A DNA stretch of 60,996 nt, the filler included, from Hausera hauseri (taxonomy: Eukaryota): NCBI GenBank assembly GCA_046269625.1. It is 11 parts of 11 records of this genome, joined end to end, with 100 filler letters (N's around TTAATTAATTAA, not from the genome) between each part and the next. Parts side by side here need not be neighbours in the genome. Positions count along the whole stretch, not along the records: positions 45,345 to 49,719 come from JBJURY010610665.1; 10 more parts are not named here. One strand, given 5' to 3'. The notes under the pieces are model-generated. The model saw only the letters and a program-made list of their open reading frames with translations. It had not been told where the DNA came from and did no database searches. Position 1 is the first letter of the stretch, and each line of letters opens with the position of its first letter. Positions 39,536 through 60,996 of the stretch are shown one piece after another. The position numbers and the translations under genes were made by a program.

Positions 39536-42500
39536 CTCTTAGGAGAAGGTCGGGAACTCGTTCACGATCACCTATTAAAAAGGATGTAGAAAAGGAGGAA
39601 GACTTCACCATCACTTTAGGAGATGAAATAGAGTTAAATAGTCCTGTAATAACCGCAAGCATGCCGGAAACAACAAGTGTTTCGAATATCGATGAAATTA
39701 ATGAAATATGTCCGTTACCATTTATCGAATATGAATCAGAAGATGGAAAATCTATAAAGTTGGGGAAAATTAGAAAATCATGGAGAAACTCAAACGAACT
39801 AACCGAGACAAGAGACGCACTTAATGACCCCGAGAGGTTACAGGAGAGCTTGCAAAAACTCCAGCAGAAGAGCAAACAGTTGGATATTTCTGGAAAAGAA
39901 CAACAATTTATAGAAAAGTTATATGAAAAGCTTAAACCCGGTTCTCAGAAAAAGCAAAAAAACATACCTTACGAACGATAAGAAATACCGCGAGACTTGA
40001 TAGAAAGTTGGCAAAATAAATTAGAACTATGGACAAAGAGTGAGATCGATTTTACGAAAATATGGTGGAATAGAAATGAGCCATTTCCCGAGCAAATTAA
40101 TCAAGCGCAAGGACTATTAGACGCACTAAAAGGCAATCCAAAACTAAAACTGGTGAGGCGTAATTTAGAAGGATTGATGCATGAGATCGAATAAACGATA
40201 ATTTCTTACCTGCATAATAAGCCGGTATATGAACTGACTGATGCCTACTTAAAGATATTGGGTATAGACCAAGTCGACATTTCCTTTCTAATAGAAATGT
40301 GCAGCCTAACAAAGGATAACTCGGAATTACCCAGATTTAACAATACGTATTGAAAAAGAAAAAGAAATACGAGCCAAAATTAACGAATTAAGAATCGGTT
40401 TAGTTTACCTTGAAAAGGCAGAAATACAGAGAATAATACGTGCTTGTCTTCTCGAATTAGATGAGTATAGAGAAGAATTCAACTATCTGAAACATCATAG
40501 AATTTGTACGAGGACCAGACCATGAACTAAAAGAAGCTTTTGAGGCGTTGGACGAAATAATATGTTAAACCAGCAATATCTAAACAATTAAGAAAGTGGA
40601 TAGACTTGTTACCTTTCATAGCAGGGATAATAAACTAAAGATGGAGAAATTTCGCTGTGGTTGAACCTATAATGAGACGTTAATTGGAGGAAATGTTACT
40701 GGATATCGGTACAATGGAAGATGAAGCGAAATTACGAATTAAATTCGAATCATTCCGAGAACTTGAATTTATGAGCAAGGAGCAAGATCAAATAACATTA
40801 ACAGAAATATATAGTATGATAGAGGAAAAGGATTTCTACAGAAAAAGAAACAAGCTGAGTGAACTCCAGCCAAGTTTAGTAAAAATCCGTTGGGAAGGAA
40901 TACAGAACCTAATACAGAAACCGTTAAAGGAAATCTCCGTACAAGAAATAGAAACATTAGAAGTATGTAACGATCACCGAATTGCTCTGGCGCAGACACT
41001 ACAGTATTTACAGAATCCAGCAGAATGGACACCAGGATTCGACCTACATTGCCACACCGAACTAACGGAAATAAGGAAGGATCTCCAGTTAACGGGCGAT
41101 GAAGCCAAATTTATAGGCAGGTTAATGGATGCAATAGATTCAGACGCCGAAGTACTAAACCAAATGCACAAACTAATCTTACTATTAACAGAAATGACAA
41201 ATTGACGAAACAGTAGCCAAACGACTAACAAATCGAATACGGCTGATAAAAGAAACCCTGTTACGCTCCGAAAAAAGACAACGCGAGCTAAACGAATTAT
41301 TGAGGGAAAGAGAAATTTACAAAAACAAATATTCGCTTACAGAATCCGAAATGAACAATAAGACGGAATTTATACAGAGACAGAATCGCAGAAATGACTA
41401 GTTATCGGTAAAGAGCTCTGATTCAACCAGAAGAAATGTGCCGGTTAATAACATTGATACAAGCGTGCGGAAATGGAGACGGATTTAGACTATCCGTAAT
41501 GAAAACGTTGCAACCGCAGATAAGAGCATTGCGCGAAAGAGTCCAGGTCGGACATGCGACACTAATGAACTACGAATTACCTGACGCAGAGAATGATTCC
41601 GAGTGGGATGAATATCTACAAGGTTTAACCGATCAAAATCAAAGAACTCCAATACAAATTTACGAGTCACCTCCCGGTGCCTAGAAGACGAAATTTGACA
41701 TGCAAATGTTACTTGATCCTGTGCTAGCCGAAAAGGAATTGAGCGGTGTGTTGAAAATAAACATAAGTGAAGATAGGTTAAGGAAGTTGATTCCAACCTT
41801 GACTAAACTATCCAGCGAAAACACCGCATACAGCGTTGTACCCAAGCTTCTAATAAGGGAATATGCTAAACTATTAAAGGAGAAACCTGAAGCACAAATT
41901 AAAGTCAAAGTATCATCCGAATGGATGGACGACGAAGAATTCGAATGCACTACCTATACCACAGTGGGAGATATAAAACAGTGGATAATGGATAAAGATG
42001 GTAGAAGTTAATTATCGATTATATTTCAGAGGAAGGATACTAGACGAGCTAGAATCCTTAATAGACGTAGGGATTATACGTCACGAAGAAAATCGAATAA
42101 TAGCAATAATCGTTAGTGAGCAGACTAAAGACGAAGCTATGAGGAAAGCACATACAGAGCATTGCGTTGGAAAAATCATGGGAGTGCAGGATTCCGCAAT
42201 GTATTTCGAATATTTACAGACCGACGATGACAAACCGCAATACGATAAAAATGTGTTTCCTCTAAGCGAAACCGTACCACCAATAAAACCGAAACGACCG
42301 GTCGGAAGACCGAGAAAAACAAAAGAAATTGATTATAATGCAGACCTAATTAGGGAATTGAGACAATTATCGGTACCAAGCCCGAGCTCGGATAACGAAG
42401 AATTGATTGAATTAATGAGATATTTGATAAGGATAGTCAACTATACTGGACTTCAAGCGACATACTATCCGAGAAGGAAAAACTAATATGCAATATAGCC

Positions 42501-42764
42501 GGGACAATGAAAACTTCACGATTTAAATGATCTAAAAGCACTCTTCCAGACGAAATAGTAATTGATAGAATTATGATAGACAGCACGATGGAAGAATTAA
42601 GGAAAGTTTTGATACATTTAGCAGTGGGAACCAACCCTCTTCGGGAAAACGAATTTTACAAGGCAATTGGATTATCTAGAAAAGCTGCGAGAAAGATTTC
42701 CAAAGAAATAAAGTGGACTAAATTGTTTGAAAAAGTAAAAATGCAAAAGGGACTAATAAGTTAG
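39536..42764 (+). pseudogene. Long decayed ORF region of an env-bearing retroelement (ubiquitin-like domain, AT-hook)
   Basis: Chain of same-strand ORF fragments; Ubl-like TTVGDIKQWIMDKDG/YRLYFRGRILDELESLIDVGI at ~41890-42110; KRPVGRPRK at ~42290-42320. Confidence 0.6.
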
Positions 42765-42769
42765 AAGAT

Positions 42770-45244
42770 ATGATACGAAATATTTCTTTAAATAAAGGTA
42801 ATGAATCCAACTGGTTAGTCAATCTGATGACAATAATGATGTTAATAAAACAGCTAGGAGCAGTCACTATATACAACTGTGATAAATTCAAGATAAGTCA
42901 AAGATATTCTCTAATGAATCTGGAAGCGTGTGAATATGCAAGACCACACAAGTTAGAAATGAGGGAGAAAAATTACTTCTTGTACCAGCAACAAGATCTG
43001 ATATCGTTAGACGGAATGGAATGCATGTTGCAACGATTTTGCAGTATTTTTCACTGTGGATTAATGCACGGACATTCTTCGATAATCAAACCAACAACTC
43101 CCCAAATTCCCATGAAATTGGAACGGCAGCACTGCAAACAGGCTAAAGAGACTGGAAGAGTACAATGGGACAATATGGAATTAAAAATGCAAGCTGTAAA
43201 AATAATTAGGGCATACAAAGTAGTAGCCGGAAGGTTAAACATGCATAATGGACACTGTAGTGGAGCTGAATACGATACTGGTAAGGGCTTAGAACCAAAT
43301 GTAGTAGTTCTGGATTTCTACGAATCAGAAATGAGAACACAGAAATTAATGTTTCATAGCGTCAACAAGTTATATACGGAGAACCAGAAATGTCATTTAC
43401 AGGATGGAACCTGTGCCTTTAAGAGCTCAGTTATAATATGGGAACCTCCCTCAGGAAGAAGTTGTAATTTTATTAAAATCAAAGAACTAAAGTTTAATGA
43501 GACCACCGGGAAACGATACGTGCATAAATTGGATACCAATTCAAGGACGCGCGAGGATGTATTAGAACATTCTACGCCCACCATATTAATCTCCGATCAA
43601 CACGGACTAAAATTTATCAAGGAAGTGATGTCACGTTGTGATGTGGTAATGTTTGCTACTATCTACGAAGCATTCTTCGTAGCCGAAACTGAGATAAATG
43701 CAAGGACTTATAAGTTGGAAACACAAGATATCAGGATTGAGGACTATCTGAAGAGACGATTAGTTTTATTACAAAGAACAAACTGGAATAACTGAGTTAT
43801 ACCACAAAATGATAACGAACGACTGTAAATTTGATACTGAGATCATGAGGACAAAACTGGCTCTTATATATGCCAATCCAGAACTGGCTTTGCCAATAAT
43901 TCCTATGAGATAGGGAATCTTTTGTCGAGTTACAGGCGAAGTACTAATAACTTACGAATATGAAGAGATGTACCCATCAATGTAGAAGAGAAATGTTGCA
44001 TCCAGGAATTTCCTGTCATCTATCAGAACACTCCTAGACTAGCTATACCATTGACGAGAGTATTATTGGATAATGCAACCCAACCCACTATTTTAAGATT
44101 GTAAAGCGAGCTTAGGAGAGCCCATGTTTAGGCGTAGTGAGACAGACTGGGTCAGTTTACCGAATGGAGGTATTACTGCTACCCCAAACAAATTAACAGG
44201 GACATCTTGCGAAAGGAATTACGTACGATAAATTTCAGGATACTTCATCGAAAGGCATATATAGGCCTAAGGAGATTGAAGCCTTTAGATAATTCCTCGC
44301 TTTTCCACAACGAACGCATGAATTAAACCGAGCCATGGCTTCTGTAGTAGACGATACCCGATATCAGGCTAAGTGGGAATCTCTACTTCGCACTAATCAC
44401 TACCAAAGAGTAACTTCAGAAATATTGTATAAGATTTCGGGAAGATTTTTAATTTTCGGACAAGCTGTATTTGGATTCTTAGCCATCTACTTAGTTCAGT
44501 TATTTAAAGCAGTAATACAAGCTATCATCAACGGATACGAAATATTCACATTAACCGGATTCTCCTGTAAGATTTTAAGTGCAATTATTACACTTTGGGA
44601 TAATGCTCAAGGCCTACGAGGAAAATCGATGGAAAAATGATGTAGAACGCCATGTCGGATACTATAATCGCAAGCGACGAGGAAAACTTTCGATTTTGTA
44701 TAGACGGAAAAATAAGACAACAGTAACAACTAAGGATGATTCAAGTGATGACGAGCCTAAGGGAGAAGTGAATTCCAGAATGAAGATGCGCAAGATGTAT
44801 TCAGTAATTAACGCACTGTTACCTATCATGCCGCCAACAGCACCAATATATGAAGACTAACCGCAAATCAATCGTATCATGTCGGTCCGAGATCTATCAA
44901 AAACCGTTTAATTACGAAGATCCTTATGAAAAAACAAAACAATATGGAGTACTACGGAAAATGAATGTTATCCACCAAGGATCAACAGAAATCGACATGA
45001 TGCTTATGTACCTTTTATTTTACCCCAATGTCAATCATGGAAAAATTTATACTGGGCAAATGTCAGTAAACCCATCAGCCCCTCGGTATATGGAACATGG
45101 AGGGATGTATCTCACGTATCAAGTTTTGTAAATGAAACAGAATTACGAGGAAAATCCCATACCATAAAACTGCGAACCCACATGTAAAACGAGTAATAAG
45201 AATGGGCCCCAACCCTTTATGAAACCAGGTAAGTAGTAGGATTG
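42770..45244 (+). pseudogene. env: Chuvirus-like glycoprotein (env) with TM segments and cytoplasmic tail
   Basis: Signal-like WLVNLMTIMMLIKQLGA, then IYNC..YSL..C, HCGLMHGHSS, CHLQDGTC..IIWEP, RVTGEV, EFPV, PLTRVL; TM FLIFGQAVFGFLAIYLV. Confidence 0.75.
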
Positions 45245-45344: not shown

Positions 45345-48300
45345 TCATGAACTGACGTTCGATTGACGAAAACACATGCATTGATGTATTCGTCCCAGTC
45401 ATCTTGCCTAGTATTTACTACTGTTTGTAATTTTCCCTTCAAATCTCCAATATATCTCTCAACCATTCCATTATTCTCCGGATGTCCGGGCGTTGACCGC
45501 AACTTTAATATTTTCACAATATCATATATGGACTGCATCACTATTCCCGTCAAATTTGATGCTTGATCGGTCGAGAGGATTCTCGGAGCTCTATAATTGA
45601 ATACTATGCTTTCCACGAATCTTTTAGCAATTGTGTCTGCCTTCATGTCAGGCTTTGGTAAGGCAACCACCCATCCGGTGGAATAATCGATGAATACCAA
45701 TATATACTTATTTCCATTTTGTGTTAGTGGTAATGGTCCCGTTATATCCATAGCGGTAAACTCAAATGGTGCTGGAGGGTTGTCCCATACTTTTAATGGT
45801 GCTTTGAATTTCGATCCTGTGTTTTCCGTGTAGAAAACAGTTTACAGCTTTCACACAATTCCTGCACGTTTTTTGTTATCCGTGGCCAAAAATATTTTCG
45901 TTTTAATTTGCTTGATGTCTTATTAGCAGATTGATGTCCTCCAAGCAATCCATCGTGGTATTGCGTAAGCAGAACTGCCCTATTTTTCTTAGGAATTACT
46001 AATGCGGGTTTGTTTTGAGTAATAAAATATAAAAATCCTTCCTTCTCCTCGTATGCTTCGCTGAATTGAGGCAGGTGACGAGTTAACTCTCTATCAACTG
46101 GCACGGTCTTACCTTTTATATATTTCCTAATGGCTCTTGTTTTTTCATCTTCATTCTGATTTGCTTTAATTTTCTCAATTGATCCATCCATACTCCATAC
46201 GGCTGCAACTACTGCTTTCGTTTCAGTTTTGTCGGGTAATCTCGATAGGTAATCGGCATTGGCATTGCGCGTGACAGGCTTGTATTGAAAATTTAATGTA
46301 TACTGTTGTAGCTTCAGGGCCCATCGTAGTAATCTACTATTCGGGTTTTCATGCTGTTTTAGCCATTGCAGTGGTCTATGGTCCGTATAAATTACAAGCG
46401 GTTTATTTTCACTAATATACGGTAAAAACATTTCCAAGGCGAATATCACCGCTAATAACTCCTTTTCTGTTATAGCTTATTTCTTTTGATGTTTATTAAG
46501 TTTTCGTGAAGCATAGGCTACAGGATGTTCCTTCCCATCTTTACCCTTTTGTGACAATACTGCTCCTAATCCGTAATCACTTGCATCTGTTGCCAGAATA
46601 AATGGTTTGGTCATGTCTGGATATATCAATATAGGAGCCGTTAATAGTCTATCTTTTAAATATTCGAAAGTTTTCTGACATTCGGTAGTCCAAATAACCT
46701 TATCTAAATCTTCACGTAATAACTCATACAAAGGTTTTGCGATTTTACTAAAATCCTTTATAAATCTCCGGTAATAGTTGGCTAGTCCTAGGAACTGACG
46801 GAGTTCTCTCACTGTACCAGGCTTAGGAAAATCCTTTATTTTTCCTAAGAGCTTGTCCTGAGGTTTTACACCATGTCTATCTACTTTATGCCCGAGAAAA
46901 TCCACCTCTGATTGTGCAAACGAACACTTCTTGGGGTTTATCTTTAAGCCCATTATTTCACATCTATCGAAGAGATCTTGCAAATCCTTTAAATGTTGAT
47001 GAAAATCTGATGACGCTATTATTACGTCGTCTATATATACCATGACGTGTGGAGCGTCTAACAGCAGGAGTTCTGTTCCTCTCTGGAACGTTGGAGGTCC
47101 ATTCTTTAGTCCAAAGGGCATCCTATTGAACTCCCATAACCCTTGTCCAATTGAGAAGGCTGTCTTCGGCTTATCTTCTTTTTTAACTTCCACTTACCAA
47201 TAACCTTTTTATAGATCGATGGTTGTAAATATAGTTGATCCATGTAGTTTATCTAGTATCTCGTCGATTCTTGGTAATGGGTATGTATCTGTTTCCGTTA
47301 TTTCATTTAGGGCTCTGTAGTCTATGCAAAATCTCATACTTCCGTCTTTCTTTTTAACCATTACTACCGGCGCTGTCCATGGTGAGCAGCTTTGCCGAAT
47401 TATCTTATTCTCTCTCATCTCCTTTATTATTCTACGGGCTTCCTGTTTCTTGTCATATGCCAGCCGGTATGGTCTCTTCTTAATTGGTTTGTCTTGTCCA
47501 TCCTTCAATTTGATGACATGCTGAATTACCTTCATGGTACCAAGGTCATAATCGGTTTGTGCAAATCGACTGGCATTCTTTTCTAGTAATTTGACTAACA
47601 TTTCCTTTTCTTCCTTGCTTAAAATTTCGCATTTTTGCAACCTTTCATTCCAGTCAATATTCGTGGTTTTACTTTGTCTTTTATCCTCACTCATTTTCTT
47701 CAGTTTCTCTGTCATCATCTTTTCTATTTTATCTACGTCTGATATTACTGAATAGGTCTCATCTTTTATTATTTCTTCAGTTATCGTTACCTTTCCCAAT
47801 TTAGTATTTTTCCGTAATCGCTTTTCTCTATTTGTTGCATTGCAAATTCGTAAGTGGATTTTTCCTTCCCTTACTTTATCGACGTGCGGGGCAATTAAGA
47901 CTTCGTACTTTTCCATAACTTGTGGAAATGGTTCGAAATGAATAATTTCCGGTAGTGTTCGGCTTTGTATTTTTCCGGGTACTATTATCTCGGATCGTGG
48001 TGGGATCGTAATGTCCCTCGTTAATGAAACCATTCCTTCGTTACGATCTTCGCTGAACGTCTTCAGTTGACATGTTTTCATGTCTCTGTATGCGTCCTCC
48101 AATTGATTCAATACGTCACACCCGATTAGAATTTCATTAGTCAGATTATCGGCTATTCTTATCGTGTGTTTCAGGGTTTGTTCACCAATCTTAATCTTGG
48201 CATCTAGGACCATTTTGATTTCCTCTTCTGTACCAAATGCTCCTACATTTACCATTGTGATAGTTGGTTTTCTTAACTTCTTTCTTAACTCTTTTGGCAA

Positions 48301-48420
48301 TTGGCTCTTGCCCATTATTGTCGTTGTAGATCCTGTATCTAACAAAGCCATCATGGGGTATCCGTTCACTTCTATTTCTATTTCGGGTCGTATCGGTGGT
48401 GGTCGTTCGGTTTTATCATT
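45345..48420 (-). mobile_element. pol: Gypsy pol: PR, dUTPase-like-fold spacer, RT, RNase H, integrase
   Basis: [45 protein letters not shown] zinc motif, MDITGPLP, STDQASN. Confidence 0.97.
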
Positions 48421-49719
48421 AATTGTATATGTAGATTCACGCTTATGGGGGACTGCATTTTCGTACATACTTTGTTTCATCTGTTGCACTTGTTGTATAG
48501 GATACAGTTCTGCATGTCCTACATATTGGGGAGCTGAATAATTTATTAACGTTTGCTCGTTATATAGTTGCCCGTGGTATTCATCCGCAGGATCCAACTG
48601 AGGCAGGTCAGTTATTAATTTTTGTCTATACTTGGACTTTCGTGTCTTTAACATTAAGTGTTTAATGCTAGGTATTCGTTTCTTTACTTTCATTTGGCTA
48701 TACTCAGCATCATTATCATCCGGTATACTATATAAGGATTCTTTTATGTCTTTCCTCTTTAGTATCTTCCTCTTCCATCGTGCATCATGGTTTGCTAAGA
48801 AACAACTTGCTACTGCCGGTATTACCGCTATTAGAATTTTCCATGAGCATCCTACTGCGGCATGTATCCCATATGCTTTACCTAGTGCCGTAAATACTGT
48901 TCGAAGGGCACTAATTATAAAATATATCGCTAGAAAACCGGAAGCGGCTTGACCAAAATATAAGAACTTGCCCCACATCTTTTTCATTACGTTTTTCGTC
49001 ACCTTCTTTAAATAGTCCTTACCAATAAGGTTTTCCCACTATGGTGATCCTTCGCCATCCCACATAACTCTCCTTGTCAATTCCGTTATAACCCTCTGTC
49101 TATGCTGTGGAAACAGCAACATACGTCGATAGTCTTTTAGATTTTGCTGTGCGTAGATTTCTCCTTGCGATATTCCAGTCAACGGTTCAAATTTCTGATT
49201 CCGTTGTAAATTAATTAAACTCAATGTCTCTGGTTTGGATACTGATTCTATTTTTGGCATCCTGATCTATTTATCGTTATCAATCTTGAACATGGGTGAC
49301 ATATTAAAGGTACAATTATATAGAGACGTTGGCTTCACGTTATTATCTAATAATATTCTAGTTACTGGGATCACGTATCTTGGTTCCATATGGTACATCA
49401 CAAGTAATTCCATCGTGCATTCTTCTGTTGGCCTAATTGATACTTCCACTTTTGTACATTCTATTGTTATTAAAACTTCGCCCATTATTCTGCCGATAAT
49501 TCCATCAACGAAGGCATTACAGGCGCTACCATATCCGGGTTCGTTATTACCAGCGCCATTTTATTACGCATTATTTCGTAATTCAGCTTGCACTCTTTCA
49601 TTATTATTTCACGATATAGACCTCTAACTTCTTTTCTTACGTAATTGATTAAAAAATCAATCTTATTGTAGAAATATTGCGTCAGTTTTATCTTTCTTAT
49701 CTATTTTGGTTTTCGCCCC
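48421..49719 (-). pseudogene. env: Env C-terminal half, contiguous and in frame with PR-RT
   Basis: Homologous to 43750-45130 ([28 protein letters not shown]); single ORF 47209-49002 spans TM, tail, protease and start of RT. Confidence 0.85.
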
Positions 49720-60030: not shown

Positions 60031-60304
60031 CAGATGCTGTGTTAGTTAAAAGGCGCAAAGACGGACACCATGTTACTGAAATGAACAATAACAAAAAATG
60101 AAATGAACAGTAACAGAGCAACAATGAATATATAACTGAAAACAAAAGGCAAAAGCTATTTACGTTCTGAAGGAGTAAAACTATATGATGTTATCGGCAG
60201 ATATTTAATATCTAAACCAATTGGCTATATAAGTGTGAAAATAAAAATTTGCTTTCAAGGAAGCAAGCAAAAAGATGGAATTATTGATCCAACTCTTGGG
60301 AACT

Positions 60305-60996
60305 CTTTTCCATAACGTTTCTTATTACTTTCTTTAGGTAATCCTTACCCATTAAATTTTCCCATTATGGTGATCCTTCACCGTCCCACATTACTCTCCT
60401 GGTTAGTTCTATTGTGACCCGTTGCCTTTGCTGTGGGAACAGCAACATTTGTCGGTAATCTTCTCAATTTTGTTGTGTATAGATTCCTCCTTGTGATATC
60501 CCTGTTAACGATTCGAATCTCTGATTCCTCTGTAAACTAATTAAGCTTAATGTTTCTTGTTTAGACACGGGTTCTCTTATTGGAATTCTAATCTATTTTT
60601 CATTATCAATCTTAAACATTGGCGACATACTAAAAGTACAGTTGTATAGCGAGGTAGGCTTCGTATTAACGTCTAACAGGATTCTTGTCACTGGCATCAT
60701 ATACCTTGGTTCTGTATGACAGACTACGGGTAATTCTGTTGTACATTCTTCTGTTGGCCTGATTCATACTTTCACCTTTCTGCATTCTATGGTTATCAAC
60801 ACTTCGCCCATCACCCTTCCAATAATTCTGTCGCCAAGGGCATGGCTGGCGCTACCATGTCGGGATTTGTTATCACCAGGACCATTTTATTTCGTATTAT
60901 TTTATAATTTAGTTTACATTCGTTTATTATTGTTTCTCGGTATAAATCTCTAATCTCTTTCCTTACATAACTGATTAAAAAATCGATCTTATTACC
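60305..60996 (-). pseudogene. env: Third env fragment, close relative of 48980-49670
   Basis: Colinear nucleotide homology with mostly third-position differences (GEVLITIEC, PVTRILL, PMFKID). Confidence 0.9.

Follow-up and report, generated by a model that had tools for sequence, protein, structure and literature searches.

Evidence for a decayed Burro-like Ty3/gypsy element with a class III-type env in frame upstream of Pol

A 4.4-kb contig of Hausera hauseri (45345-49719, minus strand) very probably carries a dead Burro-like Ty3/gypsy element of high copy number, in which env, an aspartic protease (PR), a dUTPase-like domain, reverse transcriptase (RT), RNase H (RH), and the start of integrase (IN) lie in one frame, and whose family likely makes a single Gag-Env-Pol polyprotein that is predicted to cross the ER membrane twice, into the lumen and back out. 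The window, i.e. the whole stretch of 60,996 nucleotides that was analyzed, consists of 11 short repeat-rich contigs joined by artificial N/TTAATTAATTAA spacers. Judged from the sequence content, the host is an animal. On other contigs of the window, pieces of polinton-type DNA polymerase, transposase-like ORFs, a C2H2 zinc-finger array, and ordinary gypsy pol fragments were seen by eye. The CpG o/e ratio was 0.24 in the first contig compared to ~1.0 in the retroelement contigs.

The preliminary description of this locus had reported an uninterrupted 597-aa ORF leading from two hydrophobic segments through protease into RT. We found the frame open at 47209-49038 (minus strand) for 609 codons from stop to stop, with both hydrophobic segments and the LLDTGS motif in it; counting from a GTG at 49002 gives the 597 aa and counting from the first methionine 592 aa. 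Neither of the two is the real start, because the frame goes on upstream beyond an isolated stop. The ORF joins the env transmembrane (TM) helix to PR, with Pfam matches to PF24664 (Monjiviricetes_fusion) at residues 3-101 (E 1.9e-14) and to the RVP protease at residues 217-314 (E 7.5e-11). However, it takes in only the first ~50 residues of RVT_1, and the YIDD motif lies outside, beyond two stops.

With stops written as X, the sequence was read from the end of the contig as far as the zinc finger of integrase. This read-through of copy 1 is a single frame of 1308 codons with 11 stops compared to ~96 expected, while the other two frames over the same stretch contain 133 and 114 stops. Pfam domains follow each other as env (73-328, E 7e-44), PR (444-541), RT (788-946), RNase H (1035-1140), and IN zinc finger (1242-1300), so that env does lie upstream of and in frame with PR, as had been proposed. 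The integrase core is in a different frame from that running from env to the zinc finger. Copy 1 is dead, yet its frame is old and continuous. The pol order PR-RT-RH-IN together with gypsy-type RT and RNase H in Pfam is that of Ty3/gypsy elements, and the PF24664 match, accompanied by a weak match to BDV_G, identifies env as gB/chuvirus (class III) type. Pfam searches of ORFs and of the X read-through identified no Gag in the window, no LTRs were found on the env-Pol contigs, which are internal fragments, and the decayed upstream region of the short contigs gave no Pfam match to BCL2-like, MATH, BIR, or ankyrin domains. The features are as follows.

48736..49503, minus: C-terminal half of env, class III-type (gB/chuvirus-like), copy 1 (PF24664 E 7e-44, X read-through; N-terminal half lost at the contig end, 49719)
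48889..48963, minus: predicted env transmembrane helix (KD19 1.82; 1.92-2.41 in 8/8 natural relatives)
48793..48864, minus: second hydrophobic segment, predicted and likely a cytosolic membrane-surface helix (KD19 1.92; 1.01-1.58 in 8/8 relatives; conserved G, W, P)
48391..48735, minus: basic, variable linker from env tail to protease, open and in frame
48097..48390, minus: retroviral-type aspartic protease with LLDTGS (RVP E 7.5e-11)
47749..48063, minus: dUTPase-like beta domain between PR and RT, suggested by AF2 model and Foldseek
46882..47358, minus: reverse transcriptase with YIDD, two stops in copy 1 (RVT_1 E 4e-34)
46300..46617, minus: RNase H, one stop in copy 1 (RT_RNaseH E 1e-38)
45820..45996, minus: integrase zinc-binding domain, in the env frame (Integrase_H2C2 E 5e-15)
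45345..45841, minus: integrase core, in another frame and cut by the contig end (rve E 6e-9)
42731..44640, plus: copy 2 (diverged), with internal signal-like segment, env ectodomain, and TM region, stops and frameshifts (PF24664 E 3.4e-18 and 9.4e-13; hydropathy)
45036..45227, plus: end of the copy 2 linker, homologous to the sequence immediately preceding PR in copy 1 (tblastn 37.5%, E 2.8e-6)
60098..60988, minus: copy 3, an env fragment only, with similarity stopping around the TM region (tblastn 59% aa; blastn 77.5% over 690 nt)

Natural relatives were sought with HMMER among 1.84 billion representative proteins, and the best 150 matches were examined. Three of these best 150 representative matches carry this env, in all three upstream of PR/RT. 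P0154, P0155, and P0156 were obtained by searching with the env of one relative, P0005, and L001 and L002 by scanning metagenomes, where they were 2 of 73 pattern matches. All eight natural ORFs are stop-free from the env TM to the first PR motif, a distance of 128-208 residues compared to 209 in the window copy; seven of them go on to RT and six through integrase. P0003 and P0155 are close relatives and hence not independent among the eight. The relatives keep a full-length match to PF24664 (profile positions 4-650 of 653), and CCHC knuckles precede env in three of the eight (L002, P0005, and P0154). In L002, a frame of 3,703 aa has a Gag-Env-Pol layout with two CCHC knuckles, a weak ubiquitin match, env, PR, RT, RH, and IN. 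Two observations had been named in advance as speaking against the layout, namely a stop between env and PR in intact copies and an adjacency unique to the window copy. The first was not seen in any of the eight ORFs, and the second does not apply, as the order is found in copy 2 and the junction in eight database ORFs. LTR-like self-repeats were found in neither L001 nor L002. Word-index protein searches returned no longer homologue for the env tail (0/382 candidates) or the env N-half (0/974), and a first metagenome scan with an RT piece returned none (0/233); HMMER-type searches did find relatives.

The relatives differ in further details. Two or three tandem aspartic-protease domains lie between env and RT in L001, L002, P0003, P0154, P0155, and P0156, while the window copy, P0005, and P0016 have a single one; some relatives carry an extra aspartic protease after integrase. 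A separate ORF downstream in L002 (12085-13473) has a weak exonuclease match (RNase_T, E 0.0011), and the downstream ORF of L001 (10617-12107) is similar to it by eye. P0005 (HBK71150.1), with 2,627 aa and the order CCHC-Env-PR-RT-RH-IN, bears the label of a Flavobacteriaceae MAG protein; this record is likely a misbinned animal contig.

Two further copies lie in the window. Copy 2, on the contig 39536-45244 (plus strand), has an env N-half at 42731-43795 (PF24664 E 3.4e-18), a TM region at 44293-44640 (PF24664 E 9.4e-13), and at 45036-45227 a match to the pre-PR linker of copy 1 (37.5% over 64 aa, E 2.8e-6, tblastn). This bears out the earlier observation that the order of env and tail recurs in a diverged family member at 42770-45244. 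Since frameshifts interrupt this contig and its end falls at the expected beginning of PR, copy 2 provides the order, but not PR or the frame. Upstream of its env, ~3.2 kb of decayed coding sequence (39538-42730, plus strand) gave no confident Pfam match. Within it, 41989-42483 ranked first when 1415 pieces were searched with a profile built from L001/L002 segments, although the match is weak (E 0.07). The piece may be ubiquitin-like; searches with it returned nothing in Pfam or PDB and no usable Atlas match. The comparison of copies 1 and 3 is indel-free over 685 nt, with a dN/dS of 0.09 over 217 codons, and shows that their env diverged under purifying selection. Of 11 codon positions that bear a stop within the region compared, four do so in copy 1 as well as in copy 3. 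These common stops are unexplained, with recurrent hot spots or gene conversion as options.

How such a polyprotein would be placed in the membrane was assessed by hydropathy. A hydrophobic segment lies just before the conserved env start in copy 2 and in six relatives and may be read as an internal signal sequence. The first segment after the ectodomain has KD19 values of 1.82-2.41 in all ten sequences. Exactly four hydrophobic peaks are present in L002, P0005, P0003, and P0155, i.e. one pair around env and one after integrase, and P0156 has the signal/TM pair around env only. L001 and P0154 show no pre-env peak at threshold, and additional hydrophobic peaks, in an odd number at the threshold used, lie between the proteases of L001. 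Hydropathy hence predicts an internal signal and one TM, which would leave PR and Pol in the cytosol. Under this model, Gag and accessory domains would remain cytosolic, and the ectodomain of the glycoprotein would enter the lumen by way of the internal signal sequence, with its N-terminus released by signal peptidase of the host. The single TM helix would take the chain back to the cytosol, where a membrane-surface helix and then the basic linker would follow, and the aspartic protease would cleave itself and RT-RH-IN from the env tail. Since PR would release itself by cleavage, Pol would likely stay tethered to env for a short time only. Synthesis of Gag, fusogen, and enzymes would take place in a 1:1:1 ratio at the same site on the membrane, which might favor the budding of enveloped particles, with fusion predicted to follow a class III mechanism.

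The layout could also be real with env being vestigial or a mere membrane anchor, so that the element would undergo intracellular retrotransposition without infectious particles. We regard this as unlikely, though it is the alternative to be taken most seriously. The predicted 1:1:1 ratio of Gag, Env, and Pol is unlike retroviral stoichiometry, copy 1 is dead, and a literature search found neither particle or infectivity data nor a test of the processing or infectivity of a membrane-spanning Gag-Env-Pol polyprotein. The purifying selection on env between copies 1 and 3 argues against a loss of env function, as do the full-length PF24664 match and the internal signal-like segment kept in the relatives.

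A different topology would result if the second post-ectodomain segment crossed the membrane, since PR would then be lumenal. In such a hairpin, with two spans after the ectodomain, Pol would come from another message or start site. The KD19 values of this segment in copies 1 and 2 of the window (1.92 and 1.60, respectively) are in line with a second span, and a low-confidence single-sequence AF2 model of the 609-aa ORF (pLDDT 37) shows both segments as helices. Yet the values stay below 1.6 in all eight intact relatives (1.01-1.58), where the segment has internal Lys/Arg and a conserved Pro, and RT and IN require the cytosol, which makes the hairpin quite improbable.

Besides the predicted fusogen with a single TM helix and cytosolic Pol, some relatives have a signal/TM pair after IN, i.e. 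in a region outside the window contig (L001, L002, P0003, P0005, and P0155). P0026 and P0078 have just one hydrophobic peak after IN, and P0156 has none there. In the five ORFs with the pair, among them L001 (2-10279) and L002 (97-11205), a predicted second membrane protein made up of a signal-like segment, a beta-rich region, and a TM closes the ORF after integrase. L001 has a further predicted membrane protein between its proteases. It is conceivable, albeit doubtful at present, that the clade represents an enveloped reverse-transcribing virus, whose flavivirus-like single polyprotein would thread the ER to give Gag, a class III fusogen, Pol, and, after integrase, a second, separate surface protein of attachment-like type. 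No mention of a post-integrase membrane protein was found in the available portions of PMC6431247 and PMC13524379 or among the results of a literature search. This predicted second surface protein of the relatives is a lead of some value.

The window RT is 55-61% identical to that of the relatives. A FastTree phylogeny was built from 61 sequences (near-full RT was present in 100 of 155 proteins, of which the best 60 were kept; L001 and L002 were left out). In it, the window RT belongs to a clade of 11 members (support 0.966), which also contains every one of the five env-bearing RTs found among the 61 sequences. The remaining five members of the clade have no env within their ORF, considering ORFs only. 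All members of the tree are unnamed relatives, with no named Burro, Cer, Mag, or NERV sequence among them.

The junction was further examined in two public runs that contain the family, one of which (X1) may be the window's own source. At 85% likeness, 14,563 and 1,980 family contigs align on the stretch, with all 30 bins covered. Among the positions listed, more than 99% of the contig depth has another letter at the stops flanking the ORF (49039-41 and 47209-11) in both runs; these stops are therefore not family features. Across 48330-48860, comprising env tail and linker, 1516 and 226 contigs were aligned and no indel was listed at ≥2%; none of the 40 substitutions listed there creates a stop alone and 19 of the 40 are synonymous, with 125 further ones in addition to those listed. 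No single aligned contig bridges TM to PR, the listed pieces covering <200 nt on the stretch, and the depth of the family contigs dips within the linker. Parts of the linker are skipped at three joints of low depth, and for two of these the skipped length is not a multiple of 3. An accident, be it a chuvirus-like glycoprotein EVE or a nested element beside an unrelated gypsy pol, or a collapsed-repeat misassembly of a short contig, could appeal to the short repeat-rich contigs concatenated in the window, the very high copy number, the missing bridging record, and the dip in depth, but is scarcely credible in view of the single stop-free frame across the junction, the family contigs free of indels, the repeated order in the diverged copy 2, the same in-frame junction in eight ORFs of independent records, and the clustering of the window RT with env-bearing relatives. 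The natural ORFs already largely refute it, and the env-PR junction is not an artefact. Pfam, the family contigs, and the eight uninterrupted natural ORFs thus support the reading first proposed, a Ty3/gypsy Env-PR-RT-RH-IN polyprotein with a chuvirus/mononegavirus-type glycoprotein.

For the stretch between PR and RT, AF2 with a three-sequence alignment produced a beta model with a pLDDT of 79 (best of 5). Foldseek against PDB assigned it to dUTPases in all 25 matches listed (best E 1.5e-3, prob 1.00, TM ~0.5). At the level of the predicted fold, a dUTPase-like domain thus appears to sit between PR and RT, as in Burro. In sequence searches, phmmer returned no dUTPase among 18 matches, the best E value of a profile search was 0.37, and Pfam gave 0/3.

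While the observation of an env in frame before Pol and its reading as a polyprotein hold, the implied novelty does not. Burro (PMC6431247) and the GAG-ENV-POL elements known from three phyla (PMC13524379) have already been described with env upstream of pol, according to the portions of these papers available to us. With the layout in print since 2019, the discovery value is small. The present data add one further high-copy family and several intact relatives, and touch on the processing of a Gag-Env-Pol polyprotein that would span the membrane and on the possible infectivity of such elements; on both points, a dead, fragmentary copy is a poorer handle than the intact published Schmidtea families.

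Gypsy-type RVT_1, RT_RNaseH, and Integrase_H2C2 matches and the upstream position of env separate the window element from BEL/Pao elements of the Anakin type. In Anakin, env follows pol, while nematode NERVs are said to have a continuous gag-env-pro-pol ORF. As far as the accessible text goes, Anakin elements (Dezordi 2020, PMC7642597) share the glycoprotein class of the window env, and NERVs (Sacco et al. 2022, doi 10.1099/jgv.0.001739) are metaviruses with a captured RNA-virus glycoprotein before pol, as here. Judging from the env rows available, the nematode env differs from the window env by eye, and nematode and flatworm env-before-pol elements are stated to be non-monophyletic. Troyka, from what was accessible of PMC12440569, is not relevant as a comparison.

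Closer counterparts are the GAG-ENV-POL gB-type Ty3/gypsy elements of flatworms, nematodes, and bryozoans (Chary and Hayashi, eLife 2026, PMC13524379). In the portions of that paper at hand, these HSV/gB-type 'errantiviruses' agree with the window element in env before pol, a gB/chuvirus-type env, and the Ty3/gypsy pol order. They are intact, whereas copy 1 is dead; the gene order is given, and a discussion of in-frame fusion or processing was not found there. By eye, the cysteine spacing and short motifs of the env N-half in copy 2, P0003, L001, and L002 are nearer to the Platyhelminthes_C1a (Schmidtea) rows of the same source than to the nematode rows or the single bryozoan row compared.

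The closest likeness is to Burro/GYPSM1, giant gypsy-like elements of planarians, in which env lies in frame between gag and pol and PR is separated from RT by a dUTPase-like domain (Arkhipova and Yushenova 2019, PMC6431247). This comparison rests on the published description, as far as available to us, rather than on direct sequence comparison. Burro has a giant length, LTRs, Gag, and BCL2, MATH, BIR, and ankyrin domains, features that the window contigs are too short to show. It shares with the window family an env in frame upstream of PR in a single polyprotein, an env matching mononegavirus-type fusion glycoproteins, and a very high copy number with decayed fragments carrying stops and frameshifts; through the relative L002, the likeness may extend to CCHC knuckles and a weak ubiquitin match upstream of env. 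The window family works like Burro and has both Burro features that can be examined here, the in-frame env and, at the level of the modelled fold, the dUTPase-like domain.
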